A DNA stretch of 64,000 nt from positions 633 through 64,632 of the forward strand of contig JACPMR010000011.1 of assembly GCA_016185945.1 (NCBI GenBank). The letters run 5' to 3'. Every line of letters begins with the position of its first letter. Within the stretch, counting starts at the first letter, position 1. The position numbers and the translations under genes are program-made. The stretch is from Candidatus Woesearchaeota archaeon (GTDB taxonomy: Archaea; Nanobdellota; Nanobdellia; Woesearchaeales; GW2011-AR4). A model generated the notes under the pieces. It was not told the origin of the DNA, searched no databases, and worked only from the letters and a program-made list of their open reading frames with translations. Shown one piece after another: positions 3,368 to 63,433 of this stretch.

Positions 3368-4252
3368 TCAGTTTAAATAATTTTCTGTTTTAAAATCTGC
3401 AAGAAGGTTCACTAACTCTTTGGCCAATTCAAGGTTATGAAGCGTTATATACTCTATGTTCAATCCCACTGGTATTTTTACATCAATTCCATCAAGAAAA
3501 CTGAAAATTTTGTTTACTAATTCTATTATCACATTTATGGACTCTTTGCCTGTGTCATCTGCAAACCTTAATCTGCTTTCTGTTTTCTCCGTCATATGAG
3601 CTCCAAGCCATTTAATAAACGCAATGTCCTCAGAATTGGACACAGGCGAAAAGCTCAAATAAAATTTTGCAGGCTTTAAATTAAATTCATTACATTTTCT
3701 TGAGTATTCTTTTAGAACATTTACAATTTTATCTGACTCAAACAAAACCTGGCTGGTGAAAAAATTGCATCCAGAAGCTGTTTTGCTTATTAGCCTGTCA
3801 GCCTCATTATCCCTTTCAGGTATGAAAATGTTGCCAAAATTGATTTTTTTGTTCTTTGCAATTGAATTTGCTTCTATAATGCTTGGCCCAGGGTACTCAA
3901 AAGAATTGATTTTCTGCCCCACAAACACAAAGTTTTTGATTCCAAATTTGCTGATGCTTTCATCAAGCCATTGCTCAAATTTGTCTTTAGAATTGTGGTG
4001 CACAACAACTGTATTAATTATTATCTCTCTGCCGCATCTTTCCCTTAGCTTTAATCCAAACTCCCTAGTATCAATGTTTTTATAATAAGGCCGTCCAAGA
4101 TGATTTTCTTCAACTATTTCAGGAATGTTTAATGTTGTGACATTTTTCATGCCTTCCAAGGCATTCGTTATTTTGTCTATAATCTTTCTCGCATACGCCT
4201 CAGAGGCGCTTTTTGTGCATGGAATAACCTCAAAAACTATGCCTCCTTTCAT
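3368..4252 (-). CDS. Methylenetetrahydrofolate reductase (MetF)-like TIM-barrel protein.
   Basis: Length and the motif CNFFTSQVLFESD resemble MetF QFFFD. Sits next to metE. Confidence 0.4.
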   Translation of the reverse strand: MKGGIVFEVIPCTKSASEAYARKIIDKITNALEGMKNVTTLNIPEIVEENHLGRPYYKNIDTREFGLKLRERCGREIIINTVVVHHNSKDKFEQWLDESISKFGIKNFVFVGQKINSFEYPGPSIIEANSIAKNKKINFGNIFIPERDNEADRLISKTASGCNFFTSQVLFESDKIVNVLKEYSRKCNEFNLKPAKFYLSFSPVSNSEDIAFIKWLGAHMTEKTESRLRFADDTGKESINVIIELVNKIFSFLDGIDVKIPVGLNIEYITLHNLELAKELVNLLADFKTENYLN

Positions 4253-7304: not shown

Positions 7305-7497
7305 CTGTTATATTTATTTTGCAGTATATAAATTTTTTGGAGGATTTAAGCAGATTGTGTTAAATGGGTTCCATCAAGCGGCATAAACCTTTAACATTTA
7401 GGGATGATATACCAGTATTGGTATACACAATACTGAATACCACCAGACAATAAAACCAGCACAACCTTTTTAAACCACTACTTTTTACGATGTGCGG

Positions 7498-9588
7498 GTG
7501 AAAAAATTCAGAACATTAAAAAGACAGAAAATACTAGTAACATCTGCATTGCCGTACGCCAACGGGCCGATCCACGTAGGGCACCTAGTTGAATACATAC
7601 AGACAGACATATTTGTCAGATTTCTAAGATTAATTGAAGAAGATGTTTTGTATGTCTGCGCTGACGACACCCACGGAGCGCCTATTGAAATAAAGGCAGC
7701 AGAGTTAAAAATAACCCCAGAGCAATTAATTGCAGATGTCTATAAGGAGCATGTTCAGGACTTCAAGGATTTCTCAATCAGCTTTGACAATTACTACACA
7801 ACAAACAGCCCGGAAAACAAGCATTACAGCGATTTAATATTCCTGAGATTAAAGAATAAAGGCTACATTTACACAAAAGACATTGAAGTTACTTATTGCG
7901 AAAACTGCAAGAGAACATTGCCGGACAGGTATGTCAAGTGAAAATGCCCAAAGTGCAATGCCCCTAATCAATATGGGGATGTTTGCGAGCAATGCAATGC
8001 AGCTTACAAAACCATTGATTTAATAGAGCCGTATTGTGCAATATGCAAAAACAAGCCAATCAGAAAAACTTCAACCCACTATTTCTTCCAATTAAGCAAA
8101 TTCTCAAAAAAGCTTGAGTCATGGCTGACAAAAAACAAAAACTTGCAGCCGGAAGTAAAAAATTTTGTCCTGAACTGGATAAAAAATGGATTGGAGGACT
8201 GGAACATAAGCAGGGACGGCCCTTACTTTGGCTTCAAGATTCCAGGGGAAGAAAACAAGTACTACTATGTTTGGCTCGATGCCCCAATCGGCTACATTGC
8301 AAGCACCGATAATTATTGCAAGAAGCACGGCTTGAAGACAGAAGATTACTGGAACAGCAAGGATGCGGGAATCTATCATTTCATCGGAAAGGACATTACT
8401 TACTTCCATCTCTTGTTCTGGCCTGCAATGTTGATGGGTGCTGATTTTGAATTGCCTCAAAGCGTTTATGTCCATGGCTTTTTGACAGTCAACGGCGAGA
8501 AGATGAGCAAAAGCCGGGGAACTTTCTTCACCGCAAGGGAATTTCTGCAAAAATACAACCCGGAATATCTTAGGTTTTACTATGCGAGTTTGTTGAGCAG
8601 GAATTTGTCGGATATAGATTTAAGTTTTAATGATTTCAGGAAAAAAATCAATAATGAATTGGCTTCAAACATTGGAAATTTCTGCTACAGGGTTCTGAAT
8701 TTCCTGAACAAGCATTTTGGCGGGCAGGTCAATGGCTTGGACAATAACAAGCAACTAACCAATGAAATCAAAGAAAAAATCAAAAACATTGAAAAAAATT
8801 ATCATGACTTGAATTTCAATGAAGCTGTCAAGGATATATTGCATATTTCTTCGCTCGGCAACAAGTATTTCCAGGAAAGCGAGCCATGGAAATTGATTAA
8901 AGAAGACAGAGAAAAAGTTAATAAAATTCTTGGCTTGTGCGTGAATATTGTCAAAAATTTAAGCATTTTAATACAGCCAATTCTGCCGGATTTTTCGTCA
9001 AAGCTGCAGCAGCAATTAAATCTCAAAAACCTTAACTGGAGCAGCCTTGGTTTTGAACTGAAAAAACATAAAATAGGAAAAGAGGAGATTTTAATCAATA
9101 AAATTGAGGAGGAAGGGCAAAAGCCGATATTCCCGCTTAATTTAAAAGTTGCAAAGATAGTTGAAGTAAGGCAACATCCGAATGCCGACAAGCTCAGCGT
9201 CTTGGATATTGACTTAGGCGCTGAAAAAAGGCAGATAGTTGCTGGATTAGTTGGACACTACTCAAATGAGGAATTGAAGAACAAAAAAATAATTGTAATA
9301 ACCAATTTGAAATATGCAAAGTTAAGGGGGGTTGAAAGCCAGGGAATGCTGCTTGCCGGCGACGACGGAAAGAATGTCGGCTTATTAACTGTTGAGAAAA
9401 GCAATCCCGGCGACAGGGTTTATTTTGAAGGGTACGAAACAGGCAGGGAAGAAACAAGCTTTGACAGCTTTCAGAAGATAAGGATGCATGTGCAGAGTGG
9501 CAAGGCATATTTTGAAGGCAGGGAATTGAAAACAGACAAGGAGATTGTAAAAGTGGAGAAAGCAGCAGACGGAGCAAGAGTCAGATAG
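7498..9588 (+). CDS. metG: Methionyl-tRNA synthetase with a C-terminal EMAP/Trbp111 tRNA-binding domain. The reading frame is interrupted by a single in-frame TGA at 7939..7941 (ORF-track fragments 7492..7941 and 8143..9588 are one frame).
   Basis: HIGH motif PYANGPIHVGH; KMSKS motif; zinc knuckle KCPKC...CEQC colinear with E. coli MetRS; tRNA-binding C-terminus. TGA aligns to the conserved Gly of VKGTCPKC. Confidence 0.85.
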
Positions 9589-22114: not shown

Positions 22115-22936
22115 ATGGGCTTCAAGTTTGTTATAAAAAACGGAGAATTAATAGAGAAAGAAAAAGCAAATGTTTCGGTTTACAACAAATCATTATTTTT
22201 TGATTTTGCTGTTTATTCCAACTTGAAAATTATCCAAGGCAAAATGTTTTTGCCTGAGATAGAAATAGCAAAATTGCTCGAATCCGCGAAAGAGATTGAA
22301 TTAAAGCACAATTTTAAACAAAAACAAATTATTGAATGGGCTAAAATTCTAATCAAAGAAAATAATATTCAAGATGCCCTGATAAGAGTCTTGCTGATTG
22401 GCCCTGAAAAGGGTGCAGAGCCGTTGCTTTTCCTGTTTCCTCTTGGATTAACCTTCTATCCCGATAAGTTATACAAGCAGGGCGCCAAGGTAATAACATA
22501 CCATGGTGAAAGGTTCATGCCCGCATCCAAGACAAAAAATCTCCTTATGAGCTACATTGCATACCGCGAAGCAGAAAAAAATGGTGCAATTGATGCTTTG
22601 TTGATTGATAGAAAAGGCAACATAAGAGAAGGCACAAGAACAAGCTTTTTCGTGATAAAATATGATACATTGATAGCTCCTCCTAAAGAGAAAGTGCTGC
22701 CTGGAGTAACAAGAAAGGTTATTTTTGATATTGCACCAAAAATAATGAAAGTCAAAGAAGAGGATATACCATTATCAAAAATAAAAAACTATGATGAGCA
22801 CTTCATAAGCGGAACTACAATAAAAATCATGCCAGTTAGTCAAATAGATGATACAGTTTTAAGAAAAGGAGTCGGTGAAAAGGTTAAGATGCTGCAGAAG
22901 ATGTTTAAGGAGTATGTTGATGATTATGTTAATTAA
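22115..22936 (+). CDS. PLP fold-type IV aminotransferase (branched-chain/D-amino-acid aminotransferase or ADC-lyase family).
   Basis: EGTRTSFF and LPGVTR motifs. Confidence 0.7.
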   Translation: MGFKFVIKNGELIEKEKANVSVYNKSLFFDFAVYSNLKIIQGKMFLPEIEIAKLLESAKEIELKHNFKQKQIIEWAKILIKENNIQDALIRVLLIGPEKGAEPLLFLFPLGLTFYPDKLYKQGAKVITYHGERFMPASKTKNLLMSYIAYREAEKNGAIDALLIDRKGNIREGTRTSFFVIKYDTLIAPPKEKVLPGVTRKVIFDIAPKIMKVKEEDIPLSKIKNYDEHFISGTTIKIMPVSQIDDTVLRKGVGEKVKMLQKMFKEYVDDYVN

Positions 22937-23409
22937 ATATCCACCACAACAACCGCCTTCCACTTATTTTTTTCTTTTTTCACTTCAAACATATGCATAG
23001 TGACTGCCTTAATGTCATTCTCCAATTGTTGTTTTTGGGGATTGATTCCTTCGCCTTCAAGGACTGCTTTCAAATGATATTTTTTGTTTTCCTTTATAGA
23101 AACCTTAACTTTCTTAAAAACCATATATTTCGAATCCTTCAAGAAAAGAATTTCGGAAAGAAAATCATACAACAAATTTTCAATCTTATCATTTTCAAAT
23201 TCAAATTCAATTTTTTCCTTTGCATCAACTGTGTCGAGATTTGCGCTTAGCTCAAAAATCGCCATTGCAGCATTTTCAAACAATTCGTTCAAGTCCTTGC
23301 CGTATGCCTCATATGCTACGTCAGCGATTGCCACGTCTTCCAAGAACTTGTATTTTTTCCTGTCGTTGTTTATGTTCATTTTAATGCCCCTCAAAAAATC
23401 TGCCGACAA
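22933..23409 (-). CDS. Archease (RtcB activator).
   Basis: ADVAYEAYGKDLNELFENAAMA matches the archease N-terminal signature. Confidence 0.7.
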   Translation of the reverse strand: MSADFLRGIKMNINNDRKKYKFLEDVAIADVAYEAYGKDLNELFENAAMAIFELSANLDTVDAKEKIEFEFENDKIENLLYDFLSEILFLKDSKYMVFKKVKVSIKENKKYHLKAVLEGEGINPQKQQLENDIKAVTMHMFEVKKEKNKWKAVVVVDI

Positions 23410-24763: not shown

Positions 24764-26266
24764 CTAACCCTTCACATTCCCCACGGGCTTCAATCCAACA
24801 ACAGGCATAGAAATTCCCGCCTCTGCAACCGCATTTATTACATCATTAATATTTTTGTATGCAAAACCAGCTTCTTCAGCCAACCCCGACATTGAGATTG
24901 CTTTCACGTAAATCCCTCTTTTCTCCATGTCTCTCTGCAACTGCTCGCCTCTGACTTGCCTTTTTGCAGCAGCCCTTGACATTGTACGTCCGCTCCCATG
25001 TGCCGTACTCCCGAAAGTCTCGTCCATTGCCTTTTGGGTTCCGACAAGCAAGAAACTTCCAGTTTCCATTGAGCCTCCTATTATTACAGGCTGCCCTGTT
25101 TCCTTGTAAAGTTTTGCAAGTTCAGGATGATGCGGGGGAAATGCCCGTGTGCTTCCTTTTCTGTGCACAACAACCTTTTTTTTGTGCCCGTCAATAACAT
25201 GCTCTTCAAGCTTTGCAATGTTATGCGCGACATCATAAACCATGTGCATCTCCAATTTTTCTGCTTCTGTCTTGAAAACTTTTGAGAATCCTTCCCTTAT
25301 CCTGTGCAAAATAACTTGCCTGTTAGCAAATGCCATATTGGCTGCGCACGCCATTGCCTTGTAATAATCCTGCCCTTCATTGCTCTGGAATGGAGCGCAT
25401 GCAAGCTCCCTGTCATAAACTTCAATGCCGTATTTTTTCATTGTTCCTTCAAAAATTCTTAAGTAGTCAGTCCCAATCTGATGCCCGAATCCTCTGGAGC
25501 CGCAATGCACCATAATAACAACCTGCTCTGGCTGGGTAATTCCAAATTTTTTTGCAAGTTCTTCGTCAAAAATGTTTTCTGCCTTTACAATCTGTATCTC
25601 AAGATAATGGTTGCCAGAGCCCAAAGTTCCTAATTGTTTAATCCCTCTTTCCATTGCCTTTGAGCTTACTTTCTCCGGCTCAGCCCAGTCAATCCTGCCA
25701 TAGCCTTCAGTTCTTTCCAAATCCTCTGTCCAGCCATAGCTGTTTTCAATACACCATTTTGAGCCATATGTCATTATTTCCTTGAATTGCGATCTGCTTG
25801 CATCCACAAATCCTCTTGAGCCGACACCGGCAGGAACTGTCCTGAACAAAGTGTCAACTAATTCCCTTAATTTTGGCTGTACTTCTTTGTAGGTTAGATT
25901 TGTTGTAACAAGGCGCATGCCGCAGTTGATATCAAACCCGACTAAGGTTTAAATTCCTCCGGGTGATATCACGCCAGTCTCAGCGTCAAAAGCTGCAACG
26001 CCGCCAATGGGAAAACCGTCAAGGGCTGAATAAGAGTTTTTACTTACTCAGAATCCCCAGTGCCCATCTGGCATGCAGAATGCATATTTCTGGATTCCTG
26101 GCAAACAAGCTACATTTGTTACCTGATTAAATACACCTTCATCCATTTCCCTAAGAAGTTTTTCGGTTGCATAAATACGTGCAGGAACAAGCATACCTTT
26201 CTTATAGCTCATAGGTATTTCCCACACAGTTTTATCTACCCGCTTCATAGGTGGAAGCTCTGCCAT
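24764..26266 (-). CDS. rtcB: RNA-splicing ligase RtcB. Frame interrupted by two small in-frame insertions, each introducing a stop codon (TGA at 26048..26050, TAA at 25949..25951). ORF-track fragments 26048..26266 and 24764..25918 are one frame.
   Basis: MPDGHWGF[*VSKNSYSALD]GFPIGGVAAFDAETGVISPGGI[*TLV]GFDINCGMRL... is colinear with the archaeal RtcB consensus once the bracketed 33-nt and 12-nt segments are removed. Confidence 0.85.
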
Positions 26267-29816: not shown

Positions 29817-29989
29817 GGGGCAGTAGCTCAGCCTGGGTATTGAAGCAGGCTTAGCCGGGCTTTCCTTCAGGAAAGAGCACACAACTTTTCCAGTTGGCTT
29901 AAACGGCTGAAGACGGTATTTTGAGCAAAGAAATTTGCAATGAAATGTCCGATACCGTGGAGTCAGGAGTTCAAATCTCCTCTGCCCCA
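29817..29989 (+). tRNA. tRNA-Phe(GAA) with three introns: 36 nt in the D-loop (29838..29873), 22 nt in the anticodon-stem 5' strand (29883..29904), 41 nt in the anticodon-stem 3' strand (29915..29955). CCA not encoded.
   Basis: Joining the exons gives GGGGCAG-TA-GCTC-AGCCTGGGA-GAGC-A-CACGG-CTGAAGA-CCGTG-GAGTC-AGGAG-TTCAAAT-CTCCT-CTGCCCC-A, with all four stems pairing. ORF-track 29781..29990(-) is a spurious overlap. Confidence 0.75.
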
Positions 29990-40508: not shown

Positions 40509-42743
40509 ATGAAAAGAACCCAGACTTGCGGAGAATTGACAGATAAAGACGTTAACAAAAAAGTAACTTTATGCGGATGGTGCTCGACAAGAAGAGACCA
40601 TGGCGGGGTTATTTTTATCGACTTGAGAGACAGGTATGGAATAACGCAAGTAGTTTTTGATCCTTCTTTTAATCTTGAAGCGCATAAAATTGCTGAAAAA
40701 TTAGGCAGGGAAGATGTGATTCAAGTAAAAGGCATTGTAAAGCACAGAAAAAAGGGCATGGAAAATCCAAAGCTTAAAACAGGCGCTGTTGAAGTTTTTG
40801 TTGAGAAAATAGAAATTTTGAGCGAGTCAGAAGCCCCTCCAATGGAAATTGATGACAGGATTCTTACAAGCGAAGACACGCGCTTGAAGTACAGATATCT
40901 TGACTTGAGAAAGCCGGGAATGCAGCACAACATAATAACAAGGCACAAATTTGTCAAAGCTGTCAGGGATTATTTTGACAGCCTGGATTTTGTTGAAATT
41001 GAAACTCCTATTCTTGCAAAAAGCACTCCTGAAGGCGCTAGAGATTATCTTGTGCCGTCTAGAATTCATGCTGGAAAGTTTTATGCTCTGCCCCAAAGCC
41101 CTCAGATATTCAAGCAGCTTTTGATGGTCTCTGGCTTTGACAGGTACTTTCAGATTGCAAGATGCTTCAGAGATGAGGATTTAAGGGCTGACAGGCAGCC
41201 GGAATTCACTCAGATAGATGTAGAAATGAGCTTCGTTGAGGAAGATGATATAATGGAAATTGTTGAAGGCATGCTCAAGCACGTCTGGAGAATTTTGTTG
41301 AACAAAGACTTAAAAACGCCATTTCCAAAAATAACCTACAATGAGGCAATCAGCAAATATGGCTTGGACAAGCCCGATACAAGGTTTGAGCTTCATCTTG
41401 TTGATGTAACCGATGTTGTCAAAAACTCGAATTTTGAGGTTTTTACAAAGGCAATAAAGCAAAAAGGAATTGTAAAGTGCATAAATGCAAAGGGCTGCGC
41501 AAGCTTCAGCAGGACTGTTATAGAGGAATTGACAAGCTTTGTTGCAATTTATGGTTCAAAAGGGCTTGCATGGATGAAAGTTACAGAAAAAGGGCTTGAA
41601 AGCTCTATTGTGAAATTCTTTGACGAGAAAATACAAAAGGAATTGCTCAAGGCAGCAAATGCTAAGAAAGATGACTTGTTATTTTTTGTTGCTGACTCAA
41701 GCCATAAAGTTGTAAACGATTCACTTGGTTATTTAAGAATTGAGATTGCCAAAAGATTGAATCTTATTGACAATAATCACTTTAGTTTTGTGTGGGTTAC
41801 TGACTTTCCATTGGTTGATTGGAGCGAAGAAGAGCAGAAATATGTTGCAGTTCATCATCCTTTCACAAGCCCAAAAGACGAAGATATAGGGCTGCTTGAT
41901 AAATCTCCGGAAAAGGCAAGGGCAAAGGCATATGATATTGTTTTGAACGGCACTGAAATCGGAGGCGGCTCTATAAGAATCCATAGAAGCAATATCCAGT
42001 CAAAGATGTTTTCTGTCTTGGGTTTAAGCAAGGAAGAGGCAGAGCAGAAATTTGGATTCTTGCTCGAGGCATTCAAGTATGGCACTCCGCCTCATGGAGG
42101 CATTGCCTTGGGAGTTGACAGGATTGTTGCTATGATAACTGGAAATGAATCAATAAGAGAAGTAATTGCCTTTCCAAAGAACAAGGCAGCAGAGTCATTA
42201 ATGGATGAGGCGCCAAGTGCAGTAAGCGAGAAGCAATTAGAGGAATTACATATCAAGTTTGATTTTGTAAAAGAGCAAGTAAATGTTGTGTTCGGCAAGA
42301 TAAGGGATGTCTTGAACAAGGAAAAGATTGAGCATGAAGTGCTTGAGCACAAGCCAGTTTATACGAGTAAAGAAGCAGCTCAAGTAAGAGGCACAGAGCT
42401 GAAGCAGGGCTGCAAGGCACTAATTTGCAAGACAGAAGAGGGATTTATCCAAGCAGTTGTCTCTGGTGCAAAGGAGCTTGACATTGGAAAATTGCAGAAA
42501 CTGACTTTGTACAAGAAAATCGAGCTGGCAAATGCAAAGGAAGTAAGGCAGGCAACTGGATGCAACATTGGCTCTGTGCCGCCGTTTGGAAATTTGTTTA
42601 ATTTAAAAACTTACTTTGATAAGTCAGTTGTTGAGAATGATATAATTGCATTTAATGCAGGCACGCATACAAGAAGCATCAAGATGAAAGCGAAGGATTT
42701 GATTAAGGTTGTTAATCCTGTGGTTGGGGAGTTTGGTAAGTGA
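40509..42743 (+). CDS. aspS: Bacterial-type aspartyl-tRNA synthetase (with GAD insertion) fused to a C-terminal YbaK/ProX-type aminoacyl-tRNA deacylase domain.
   Basis: Class II motifs and the anticodon-binding OB fold (residues about 1-590). The C-terminal 150 aa align to YbaK. Confidence 0.85.
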   Translation: MKRTQTCGELTDKDVNKKVTLCGWCSTRRDHGGVIFIDLRDRYGITQVVFDPSFNLEAHKIAEKLGREDVIQVKGIVKHRKKGMENPKLKTGAVEVFVEKIEILSESEAPPMEIDDRILTSEDTRLKYRYLDLRKPGMQHNIITRHKFVKAVRDYFDSLDFVEIETPILAKSTPEGARDYLVPSRIHAGKFYALPQSPQIFKQLLMVSGFDRYFQIARCFRDEDLRADRQPEFTQIDVEMSFVEEDDIMEIVEGMLKHVWRILLNKDLKTPFPKITYNEAISKYGLDKPDTRFELHLVDVTDVVKNSNFEVFTKAIKQKGIVKCINAKGCASFSRTVIEELTSFVAIYGSKGLAWMKVTEKGLESSIVKFFDEKIQKELLKAANAKKDDLLFFVADSSHKVVNDSLGYLRIEIAKRLNLIDNNHFSFVWVTDFPLVDWSEEEQKYVAVHHPFTSPKDEDIGLLDKSPEKARAKAYDIVLNGTEIGGGSIRIHRSNIQSKMFSVLGLSKEEAEQKFGFLLEAFKYGTPPHGGIALGVDRIVAMITGNESIREVIAFPKNKAAESLMDEAPSAVSEKQLEELHIKFDFVKEQVNVVFGKIRDVLNKEKIEHEVLEHKPVYTSKEAAQVRGTELKQGCKALICKTEEGFIQAVVSGAKELDIGKLQKLTLYKKIELANAKEVRQATGCNIGSVPPFGNLFNLKTYFDKSVVENDIIAFNAGTHTRSIKMKAKDLIKVVNPVVGEFGK

Positions 42744-62363: not shown

Positions 62364-62523
62364 TAAAACACCTTTTTACTGGAAAAGAATTAGTGTTGAT
62401 TTATAAAAATGTTGTGGAAGAATGAATAGCGGGTTTATCTAACCTTTTAAACATACAATACTTAATTTTAATCAAATTCCTTTTATTTTTAAACCACCTT
62501 AAACATTGTCTTAATTACCAAAT

Positions 62524-62600
62524 TATGATTTTTGGTTCTCCAATATATAGTTTGTTGTAGCAATGGACACTGGACATTTCTGTGTGAAATATTTAAACCA
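62524..62600 (+). promoter_or_regulatory. Copy B of the duplicated intergenic element (ATGATTTTT...TGGACACTGGACATTTCTGTGTGAAATATTTAAACC).
   Basis: Aligns with 55501..55565. TATA-like box about 50 nt upstream of the LAGLIDADG ORF. Confidence 0.4.
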
Positions 62601-62646
62601 GAAAATCATTTACATAGTTTCAACCCATAAATCTCGGTGATTTAAA

Positions 62647-63248
62647 ATGGAATTTAATTTAGATTCATTAAGTAATGAAAGGTTAGAGATATTGACTAGA
62701 ATACACGCCCATTTATGTGGAGATGGTAATTTGTGCTTCTATAAAACTTCTGAGAAAGACAGGATAAATAGGGCTTCTATATCTTATTTTAATACAAACA
62801 TAGATTTAATTAATTCTTTTAGAACAGATATGAATAATTTATTTGGGGTAAAAATGACATATATTCCTAAGCTAACAAGAGTATCAGTTCAAAGTTTAAG
62901 AATTGCAAGAGTATTATCTAAATTAGGAGAGTATGGGGCAAGAGACTGGAGAATACCTAGAATAATAAAAATGCTAATAGAAATATTAGATTAGAGTGGA
63001 TTAAGGCTTTTTGTTATGATGAAGGATACACTCCTAAAGGTAGGTCAATTATTAGAATAAAATCAATGAATATTAATGGTTTAAAAGATGTCAAAGGTCT
63101 TCTGCATTCTATTGAAATTGATTCATGGATTACAGGTATAAATTGTGATGATTCAGGGTATTTAAACATTAGAAAAATGAGAGAGTTAGAAGATTTCTAT
63201 AAGAAACCATCAAGAAAAAAGATAATAGCGGGAGGAAGACTTCCCTGA
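62647..63248 (+). pseudogene. Double-motif LAGLIDADG homing endonuclease, disrupted by a -1 frameshift near 62990.
   Basis: Motif 1 RIHAHLCGDGNL in frame A (62647..62994). Motif 2 WIKAFCYDEGY in the next frame, open from 62961 to 63248. Confidence 0.5.
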
Positions 63249-63380
63249 GCATTGCTCATTTTGAACTTCCGACCTTTCTCCCTAGCTTTTGGCTAGTATG
63301 GGTGTCTAGAGCTGATAGGCTATATGAGCCCATCGGGCAAACAGGCACTATTAAGTGTCTCCTGGCTGCCCTATCCCGCT
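63226..63380 (-). tRNA. Initiator-type tRNA-Met(CAT) (A1:U72), apparently carrying four introns: D-arm (about 19 nt), anticodon loop 37/38 (about 19 nt), 43/44 (about 22 nt) and T-loop (about 20 nt).
   Basis: Minus strand reads AGCGGGA-TA-GGGC-AGCCAGGAGA[..]GCCC-G-ATGGG-CTCATA[..]A-CCCAT-[..]AGGTC-GGAAG-TTCAAA[..]T-CTTCC-TCCCGCT-A. 155 nt total = about 75 mature + 80 intronic. Each intron has its own hairpin. Confidence 0.6.
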
Positions 63381-63433
63381 ATAGTAACTGAGAATAAAAC
63401 GCGCTTTATAAACGTTGCTGAAAAATATGCAAA

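Follow-up and report, generated by a model that had tools for sequence, protein, structure and literature searches.

The 64-kb window analyzed here, a 64,000-nt stretch of contig JACPMR010000011.1 from a Candidatus Woesearchaeota archaeon, carries on its minus strand a 155-nt locus (63380..63226) which reads as an initiator tRNA-Met(CAU) gene composed of five exons and four introns. Its precursor is laid out as AGCGGGATAGGGCAGCCAGGAG-[19]-TGCCCGATGGGCTCATA-[19]-ACCCAT-[22]-AGGTCGGAAGTTCAAA-[20]-TCTTCCTCCCGCTA (intron lengths in brackets), with exons at precursor positions 1-22, 42-58, 78-83, 106-121 and 142-155 (22, 17, 6, 16 and 14 nt). The introns of 19, 19, 22 and 20 nt sum to 80 nt and leave a mature tRNA of 75 nt. 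Exon 1 (63359..63380) provides the 5' strand of the acceptor stem (AGCGGGA), U8 and A9, the D-stem 5' strand GGGC and the D-loop sequence AGCCAGGAG, and is the same as in loci L008-L013, where it is uninterrupted. It is followed by intron 1 (63340..63358; 19 nt; ACACTTAATAGTGCCTGTT) at about position 20a/21 in the D-loop, and by exon 2 (63323..63339), which holds U21, the D-stem 3' strand GCCC, G26, the anticodon-stem 5' strand AUGGG and the loop nucleotides CUCAUA with the anticodon CAU. Intron 2 (63304..63322; 19 nt; TAGCCTATCAGCTCTAGAC) occupies the canonical 37/38 site. Exon 3 (63298..63303) is a 6-nt micro-exon made up of A38 and the anticodon-stem 3' strand CCCAU, and intron 3 (63276..63297; 22 nt; ACTAGCCAAAAGCTAGGGAGAA) lies at 43/44, which may equally be written as 44/45. 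Exon 4 (63260..63275) contains the variable loop AGGUC, the T-stem 5' strand GGAAG and the T-loop nucleotides UUCAAA, intron 4 (63240..63259; 20 nt; ATGAGCAATGCTCAGGGAAG) splits the T-loop at 59/60, and exon 5 (63226..63239) supplies U60, the T-stem 3' strand CUUCC, the acceptor 3' strand UCCCGCU and the discriminator A73. CCA is not encoded at the 3' end of the gene.

An earlier note on this DNA had described a 155-nt minus-strand locus with the acceptor stem AGCGGGA/TCCCGCT (A1:U72), the D-stem GGGC/GCCC, the anticodon arm ATGGG-CTCATA[19]A-CCCAT, the variable loop AGGTC and the T arm GGAAG-TTCAAA[20]T-CTTCC, and the sequence indeed reads in this way. The note's arithmetic of four insertions totalling 80 nt, the difference between 155 and 75, was also borne out, with ARAGORN calling the spliced 75-mer tRNA-Met(cat). 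The minimum free energy (MFE) structure of this 75-mer is the cloverleaf (-32 kcal/mol, z = -2.95). By default, ARAGORN reported no tRNA in the whole 64-kb genomic window, and Rfam gave no tRNA match on the genomic sequence at gathering thresholds and none around the locus at E <= 10.

The exon-intron boundaries were determined by comparison with orthologs in the same genomic slot, which came from scanning a genome collection and from inspecting the neighbourhoods of RNase HII homologs. Another 74 loci were obtained from a metagenome scan; its search pattern required a 37/38 intron, and genes without one were thus unsampled. A spliced-alignment script mapped 64 distinct good precursors. The orthologous genes L008-L013 are 120 nt long with two introns (29/30 and 37/38), and both their D arm GGGCAGCCAGGAGTGCCC and their T arm are intact. 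In L002, CCCATAGGTC is unbroken and the 43/44 intron is accordingly missing, while the unbroken GGAAGTTCAAATCTTCC in L006 and the intact T arm in L008 denote the absence of the 59/60 intron. Exon 3 is joined directly to AGGTC in orthologs without the 43/44 intron, for example L002 and L008. Read-through in L008-L013, L002 and L006 therefore fixes the four junctions of the window gene independently of any splicing rule, and because each intron is singly missing in some ortholog, the four insertions are separable units. All four places proposed in the earlier note were confirmed by these read-through orthologs, except that the intron it assigned to the D arm splits the D-loop between loop nucleotides 9 and 10 and is not in the stem.

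The spliced orthologs strongly support the cloverleaf. Among 29 distinct spliced sequences, its stems are 99.8% paired with 50 double-sided changes, and the covariation score is 0.258, compared with 0.10 in shuffles (0/500 reach 0.258) and at most 0.094 with partners slid. The T stem varies among GGAAG/CTTCC, AGAGG/CCTCT, GGTGG/CCACC and GCTGG/CCAGC, and the acceptor stem between AGCGGGA/TCCCGCT and AGCGGAG/CTCCGCT. Archaeal and eukaryal initiator tRNAs are marked by A1:U72 and three consecutive G:C pairs low in the anticodon stem. In all 29 distinct orthologs, pair 1:72 is A:U, pairs 29-31:39-41 are all G:C, and the spliced sequence is called tRNA-Met(cat). The CAT anticodon is common to initiator tRNA-Met, elongator tRNA-Met and tRNA-Ile2 (CAU, later modified), and the ARAGORN output says merely "Met", so a real gene for one of the latter two tRNAs was also considered. 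The invariance of the initiator signature in the 29 orthologs makes this highly improbable and is the reason why we assign the gene to the initiator tRNA, as the earlier note did.

Archaeal tRNA introns are recognized at a motif called the bulge-helix-bulge (BHB), for which we used the following rule: an outer helix, a 4-bp central helix, a 3-nt bulge cut after its second nucleotide, and an inner helix with its loop, mirrored on the 3' side. The homology-defined junctions of all four introns sit exactly in BHB register, and the BHB-compatible structures that the earlier note asked for were thus found at each of its proposed junctions. The D-loop intron forms AGC-CAGG-[AG^A]-CACT(TAAT)AGTG-CCTG-[TT^T]-GCC, with 4/4 central pairs, an inner helix of 4 bp and an outer helix of 2 bp. 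The 37/38 intron forms ATGGG-CTCA-[TA^T]-AGC(CTATCA)GCT-CTAG-[AC^A]-CCCAT (central 2/4, inner 3 bp), in which the anticodon stem is the outer helix of 5 bp. For the 43/44 intron, GAC-ACCC-[AT^A]-CTAGC(CAAAA)GCTAG-GGAG-[AA^A]-GGT has 2/4 central pairs, an inner helix of 5 bp and an outer helix with a single in-register pair (GAC:GUC when offset by 1 nt), and for the 59/60 intron, GGAAG-TTCA-[AA^A]-TGAGC(AAT)GCTCA-GGGA-[AG^T]-CTTCC has 3/4 central pairs, an inner helix of 5 bp and the 5-bp T stem as outer helix. When the intron interiors were shuffled, 3, 381, 55 and 88 of 20000 shuffles reached the observed BHB score for introns 1 to 4, respectively. No slid junction pair beats the observed one for introns 1 and 4, and a few ties occur for introns 2 and 3.

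For each intron class, the sequences from different loci were aligned on their junctions, and a comparison of in-register pairing with slid registers gave the same picture. In the D-loop class, whose site is also used in L034, L062, L071 and L080, 98% of cells are paired in register; the corresponding values are 79.7% for the 37/38 class (36 distinct sequences), 80.6% for the 43/44 class (17 distinct sequences) and 84.5% for the 59/60 class (11 distinct sequences), as against 15-61% in slid registers across the intron classes. Compensatory changes in the inner helix were found at 4/4 pairs in the three larger classes. The central helices of the relatives are usually better than those of the window gene, for example with GGGT or GGGC facing ACCC and TGAG facing CTCA. 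A different exon-intron structure, with fewer and larger introns, trans-splicing or a permuted gene, could draw on the 1-nt ambiguity of the third junction (43/44 or 44/45) and on the tied BHB scores of slid junctions for the two weaker introns. However, each intron is singly absent from some ortholog of otherwise identical sequence, the exons are arranged colinearly with the mature tRNA, and the anticodon stem requires the 6-nt exon that introns 2 and 3 enclose. Fewer or larger introns, the simpler fold that the earlier note had offered as an alternative, fail since this exon, ACCCAT, is the 3' strand of that stem, and we regard any such structure as extremely improbable.

A TATA box read from the sequence, TTTATAAA (63405..63412, minus strand), lies 25-32 nt 5' of the mature 5' end, and the motif aacgTTTATAAA occurs at equal distance upstream in nearly all orthologous loci. 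On the other side, a run of six T residues (63215..63220, minus strand), likewise read from the sequence, begins 6 nt 3' of the gene and probably represents an oligo-T terminator of the archaeal type. In relatives, pseudouridine synthase, tRNA, RNase HII, two small open reading frames (ORFs), CorA and HerA follow one another in the same order, and the RNase HII relatives are labelled Woesearchaeota or Nanoarchaeota. The exact-protein look-up of the neighbouring pseudouridine synthase gave no record. The G+C content of the window is 35-40%. The gap between the tRNA and RNase HII genes (62364..63225) spans about 860 bp compared with about 30-700 bp in the relatives seen, and is a lineage-specific insertion; it contains a 115-aa ORF (62647..62994, plus strand) with no Pfam match, for which the identity of a LAGLIDADG homing endonuclease was considered and dropped on account of this negative result. 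In the relative L009, a public call of an 82-aa ORF (3522..3770) overlies an unrecognized tRNA gene at 3494..3613, and L010 and L013 are similar; these ORF calls are annotation artefacts caused by the hidden tRNA.

These data also bear on the idea that the locus is a decaying pseudogene, a dead tRNA copy that has accumulated insertions while a functional initiator gene resides elsewhere. Such a copy might well go unrecognized by ARAGORN and Rfam and carry two weak BHBs with 2/4 central pairs, and the view taken here covers 64 kb of the genome. On the other hand, 75/75 exon positions match 24 other loci despite differing intron sequences, the insertions are non-random in that BHB geometry is kept with compensatory changes, the locus sits in the syntenic slot of the sole initiator gene seen in relatives, and its promoter is conserved. 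We consider a pseudogene very unlikely.

The number of introns in the orthologous genes, which come from about 60 other metagenomic contigs with sources such as Hainich and Rifle-type groundwater and sediment, varies widely. Among the 64 distinct precursors, 10 have one intron, 13 have two, 22 have three, 14 have four, 4 have five and 1 has six, with the sites 7/8, 13/14, 15/16, ~20a/21, 29/30, 37/38, 43/44, 53/54 and 59/60 being used. The highest count was found in L007 (3074..3297, plus strand), a 224-nt orthologous initiator gene with introns at 13/14, 29/30, 37/38, 43/44, 53/54 and 59/60, all six of which pass the BHB check with central helices of at least 3/4 pairs each. Five introns are present in L001, L003, L034 and L071. 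The exact mature sequence of the window gene occurs in 25 loci, which represent 22 distinct precursors with 11 different intron sets, and for most pairs of sites all four combinations of presence and absence were found. The intron set of the window gene itself (20a/21, 37/38, 43/44 and 59/60) was met in the window alone. In L025 and L050, the 59/60 intron is 80 nt long compared with 14-36 nt elsewhere, and its central helix is still 4/4. Four marine pattern matches (L016, L039, L070 and L075) were left out, as they contain no recognizable tRNA (no acceptor or D arm); they match GGCTCATA..ACCCAT..AGGTC.....TTCAAA followed by tandem AAGGTCTTCTTTC-like repeats, and represent chance matches or else something with far greater disruption.

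The precursor of the window gene is predicted to fold at -63.9 kcal/mol (z = -4.84). Its MFE structure includes the acceptor stem, the T stem, the helices of the D-loop BHB and both the intron 3 and the intron 4 hairpin, and it pairs the final GAC of intron 2 with G46-U47-C48, which is the outer helix of the 43/44 BHB. Among the mapped precursors, the 43/44 intron goes together with a 37/38 intron whose end is GAC in 27/30 cases, as against 1/34 without it (Fisher p = 1e-13). We also observed that AGCCUAUC, the 5' half of intron 2 (63304..63322), is complementary to GAUGGGCU, the segment G26-U33 (63323..63334, minus strand), and that this helix is preferred over the anticodon stem in the MFE structure. 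The intron half AGCCUAU is shared by L057 and absent from most relatives. The GAUGGGCU:AGCCUAUC helix might act as a switch during folding, making C39-C41 available to the 43/44 BHB.

Based on these structures, a splicing route can be proposed. The gene's own TATA promoter would drive a precursor of about 155 nt with short flanks, in which EndA, the tRNA-splicing endonuclease, would recognize each intron by its BHB or relaxed BHB and cut 2 nt into each 3-nt bulge, giving eight cleavage sites. The five exon pieces would stay tethered through the acceptor, D, anticodon and T helices, RtcB and Archease would ligate them, and CCA would be added later. The 37/38 and 43/44 BHBs are mutually exclusive because both use C39-C41, either in the central helix of the 43/44 BHB or in the anticodon stem. 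Because of this exclusion, and because the GAC of intron 2 supplies the outer helix of the 43/44 BHB, intron 3 would be removed before intron 2. The 6-nt micro-exon and the mutually exclusive neighbouring BHBs are features that DPANN EndA would have to accommodate in its substrate range, which can be tested.

Two components of this route are encoded in the window. The tRNA-splicing ligase RtcB (24764..26266, minus strand) was identified by Pfam RtcB with an E value of 2.8e-143, and its activator Archease (22933..23409, minus strand) by PF01951 with an E value of 5e-41. The RtcB gene itself is interrupted, having exons at 26266..26053, 26019..25954 and 25941..24764 and two BHB-type introns, each with an in-frame stop: the first (26052..26020, minus strand) is 33 nt long with a central helix of 4/4 pairs and an inner helix of 9 bp, and the second (25953..25942, minus strand) is 12 nt long, again with a 4/4 central helix. 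Their removal restores HWGYGFPIGG and SPGGIGFDINCG, and the spliced RtcB of 485 aa gives a gap-free alignment with P. horikoshii RtcB (1uc2; E 2.6e-183). The nearest RtcB relatives (L088, at about 960-1000, and L089-L092) are 90-92% identical and appear in gene calls as truncated ORFs (384 or 446 aa). They contain a different 33-nt intron with an in-frame stop, which separates His from Trp in MPDGH|WGYGFPIGG and lies upstream of the window site by 7 nt. This intron shows BHB geometry, and its inner helix has changed in a compensatory manner (TTGTT/AGCAA, TTGC/GCAA and TCGTA/TGCGA). The 12-nt intron of the window is absent from L088-L092, and most other relatives are uninterrupted with 485-491 aa. 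Expression of the RtcB ligase would thus depend on the very splicing pathway that RtcB completes. In the literature searched, Cbf5 was the sole protein-coding gene found to be described with a BHB intron.

Taken together, 22 precursors with an identical mature tRNA carry 11 intron sets, genes contain up to six introns, and the RtcB mRNA has introns at two or more sites. On these grounds we tentatively suggest, at a little less than even confidence, that BHB introns in this Woesearchaeal clade are turning over on population timescales, being gained, lost or recombined, and that the clade is the most intron-dense tRNA system known. If so, it would be a natural system for studying the spread of protein-spliced introns, and the presence or absence of introns among genes with identical exons forms a rare data set for models of gain and loss. 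Regarding transposition between sites, blastn-short on 134 introns returned two borderline inter-class hits (E ~0.04), the introns being too short to be informative.

Several points count against a functional gene with four BHB introns. The 37/38 and 43/44 introns have central helices of 2/4 pairs each and are relaxed BHBs. The MFE structure of the precursor lacks the 37/38 BHB, GAUGGGCU pairing with the intron sequence AGCCUAUC instead, and the association of the GAC ending with the 43/44 intron may in part be due to shared ancestry and not to function. No EndA (no tRNA_int_endo match) was detected among the 58 ORFs scanned in the 64-kb window. Transcription, splicing and splicing order are all deduced here from the DNA, and a second, less interrupted initiator gene may exist outside the 64 kb in view. 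Even so, we conclude that the locus is very probably a genuine, syntenic Woesearchaeota (DPANN) initiator tRNA-Met(CAU) gene interrupted by four BHB introns.

The window contains a second hidden tRNA gene, a tRNA-Phe(GAA) gene of 173 nt (29817..29989, plus strand) with three BHB introns, which were parsed by hand: one of 36 nt in the D-loop (29838-29873), one of 22 nt at 27/28 (29881-29902; GAGC-[AC^A]-CAACT(TTTCC)AGTTG-GCTT-[AA^A]) and one of 41 nt at 37/38 (29913-29953), all on the plus strand. The spliced 74-mer was called tRNA-Phe(gaa). Default ARAGORN and Rfam missed this locus, and the call made there by ARAGORN with introns allowed, a tRNA-Leu(taa) with a 77-nt intron, is spurious. Both tRNA genes found in the window are therefore multi-intron genes. 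A scan of the window for further hidden tRNAs, based on promoter and acceptor stem, recovered the initiator gene alone, and a strict BHB scan of the window was too unspecific to reveal new introns (494 and 601 hits per strand compared with about 343 in shuffles).

Two aminoacyl-tRNA synthetase genes in the window were also unusual. The methionyl-tRNA synthetase (MetRS) gene (7492..9588, plus strand) is a single frame broken by one in-frame TGA (7942..7944), which occupies the conserved Gly position of the zinc-knuckle motif DRYVK(G)xCPKC. The motif is presumably equal in length to that of E. coli, and on this assumption the TGA does not mark an intron; possible explanations are a nonsense mutation, an error in sequencing, and read-through or recoding. 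The aspartyl-tRNA synthetase (40509..42743, plus strand) combines a bacterial-type GAD insertion with a C-terminal fused editing domain (PF04073), an architecture unusual in an archaeon.

The failure of ARAGORN and the Rfam tRNA model on both window tRNA genes means that DPANN genomes may seem to lack essential tRNAs, including the initiator, whose genes are merely split by many introns. Such hidden tRNAs bear directly on whether these reduced archaea can be claimed to miss tRNAs and to depend on a host. In a study of tRNA disruption, Kaneta et al. 2018 (PMC5829648) reported that it is more frequent in DPANN, including a Woesearchaeota genome with an L3-loop alpha4 EndA, and that incomplete tRNA sets imply unidentified disrupted tRNA genes. 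The window locus is one such disrupted DPANN gene, whereas that study gave no gene-level account of four or more introns.

Reviews and the tRNAscan-SE 2.0 paper state that archaeal tRNA genes carry at most three introns (PMC4033280, PMC8450103), and the intron load described here goes beyond this maximum, with four in the window gene and five or six in its relatives, in a new superphylum and in a tRNA needed to start translation. The closest described counterparts are the multi-intron tRNA genes of the Thermoproteales (Pyrobaculum, Thermofilum and Caldivirga; Sugahara et al. 2008, cited here by way of PMC4033280 and PMC8450103). According to the two citing papers, these genes are similar to the window gene in having short BHB or relaxed BHB introns at canonical and non-canonical sites (D arm, anticodon stem, variable region and T loop), in the sequential removal of neighbouring introns and in being missed by standard tRNA finders. 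By the same accounts, however, they contain at most three introns, compared with four here and five or six in relatives, and their hosts are hyperthermophilic crenarchaea rather than a low-GC (37%), presumably mesophilic DPANN archaeon. Their endonuclease is described there as the (alpha-beta)2 type with the crenarchaeal loop; here, no EndA was found in the 64-kb window. The nuclear tRNA genes of Cyanidioschyzon merolae (PMC3728597) likewise have BHB introns at ectopic sites, namely the D loop, D stem, variable arm and T loop, with an order of removal that was shown experimentally, but they belong to a eukaryote, have three introns at most and are in some cases permuted.

The statement in the earlier note that three introns is the archaeal maximum thus agrees with the reviews and the tRNAscan-SE 2.0 paper, but is contradicted by data from Asgard archaea. 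In Valentin-Alvarado et al. 2024 (PMC11291895), introns are reported in 92-95% of the tRNA genes of Atabeyarchaeia and Freyarchaeia in three genomes, several introns are present in over half, and Supplementary Data 4 contains four-intron tRNAs including Arg-TCT and Ile2-CAT. These intron-rich Asgard genes resemble the window gene in their four-intron cases and differ from it in superphylum (Asgard versus DPANN). The Asgard initiator tRNA has three introns in contrast to four in the window, and no gene with five or six introns is listed in the portion of the data examined; the four-intron genes are passed over in the main text, and no BHB or comparative analysis accompanies them (PMC11291895). 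Our literature search found no report of a four-intron DPANN tRNA, a four-intron initiator tRNA or a tRNA gene with five or six introns. Therefore, four introns are rare and barely described but not unprecedented, and the window gene stands at the upper end of the known range of multi-intron BHB tRNA genes, in a lineage for which their existence had so far been no more than a suspicion.

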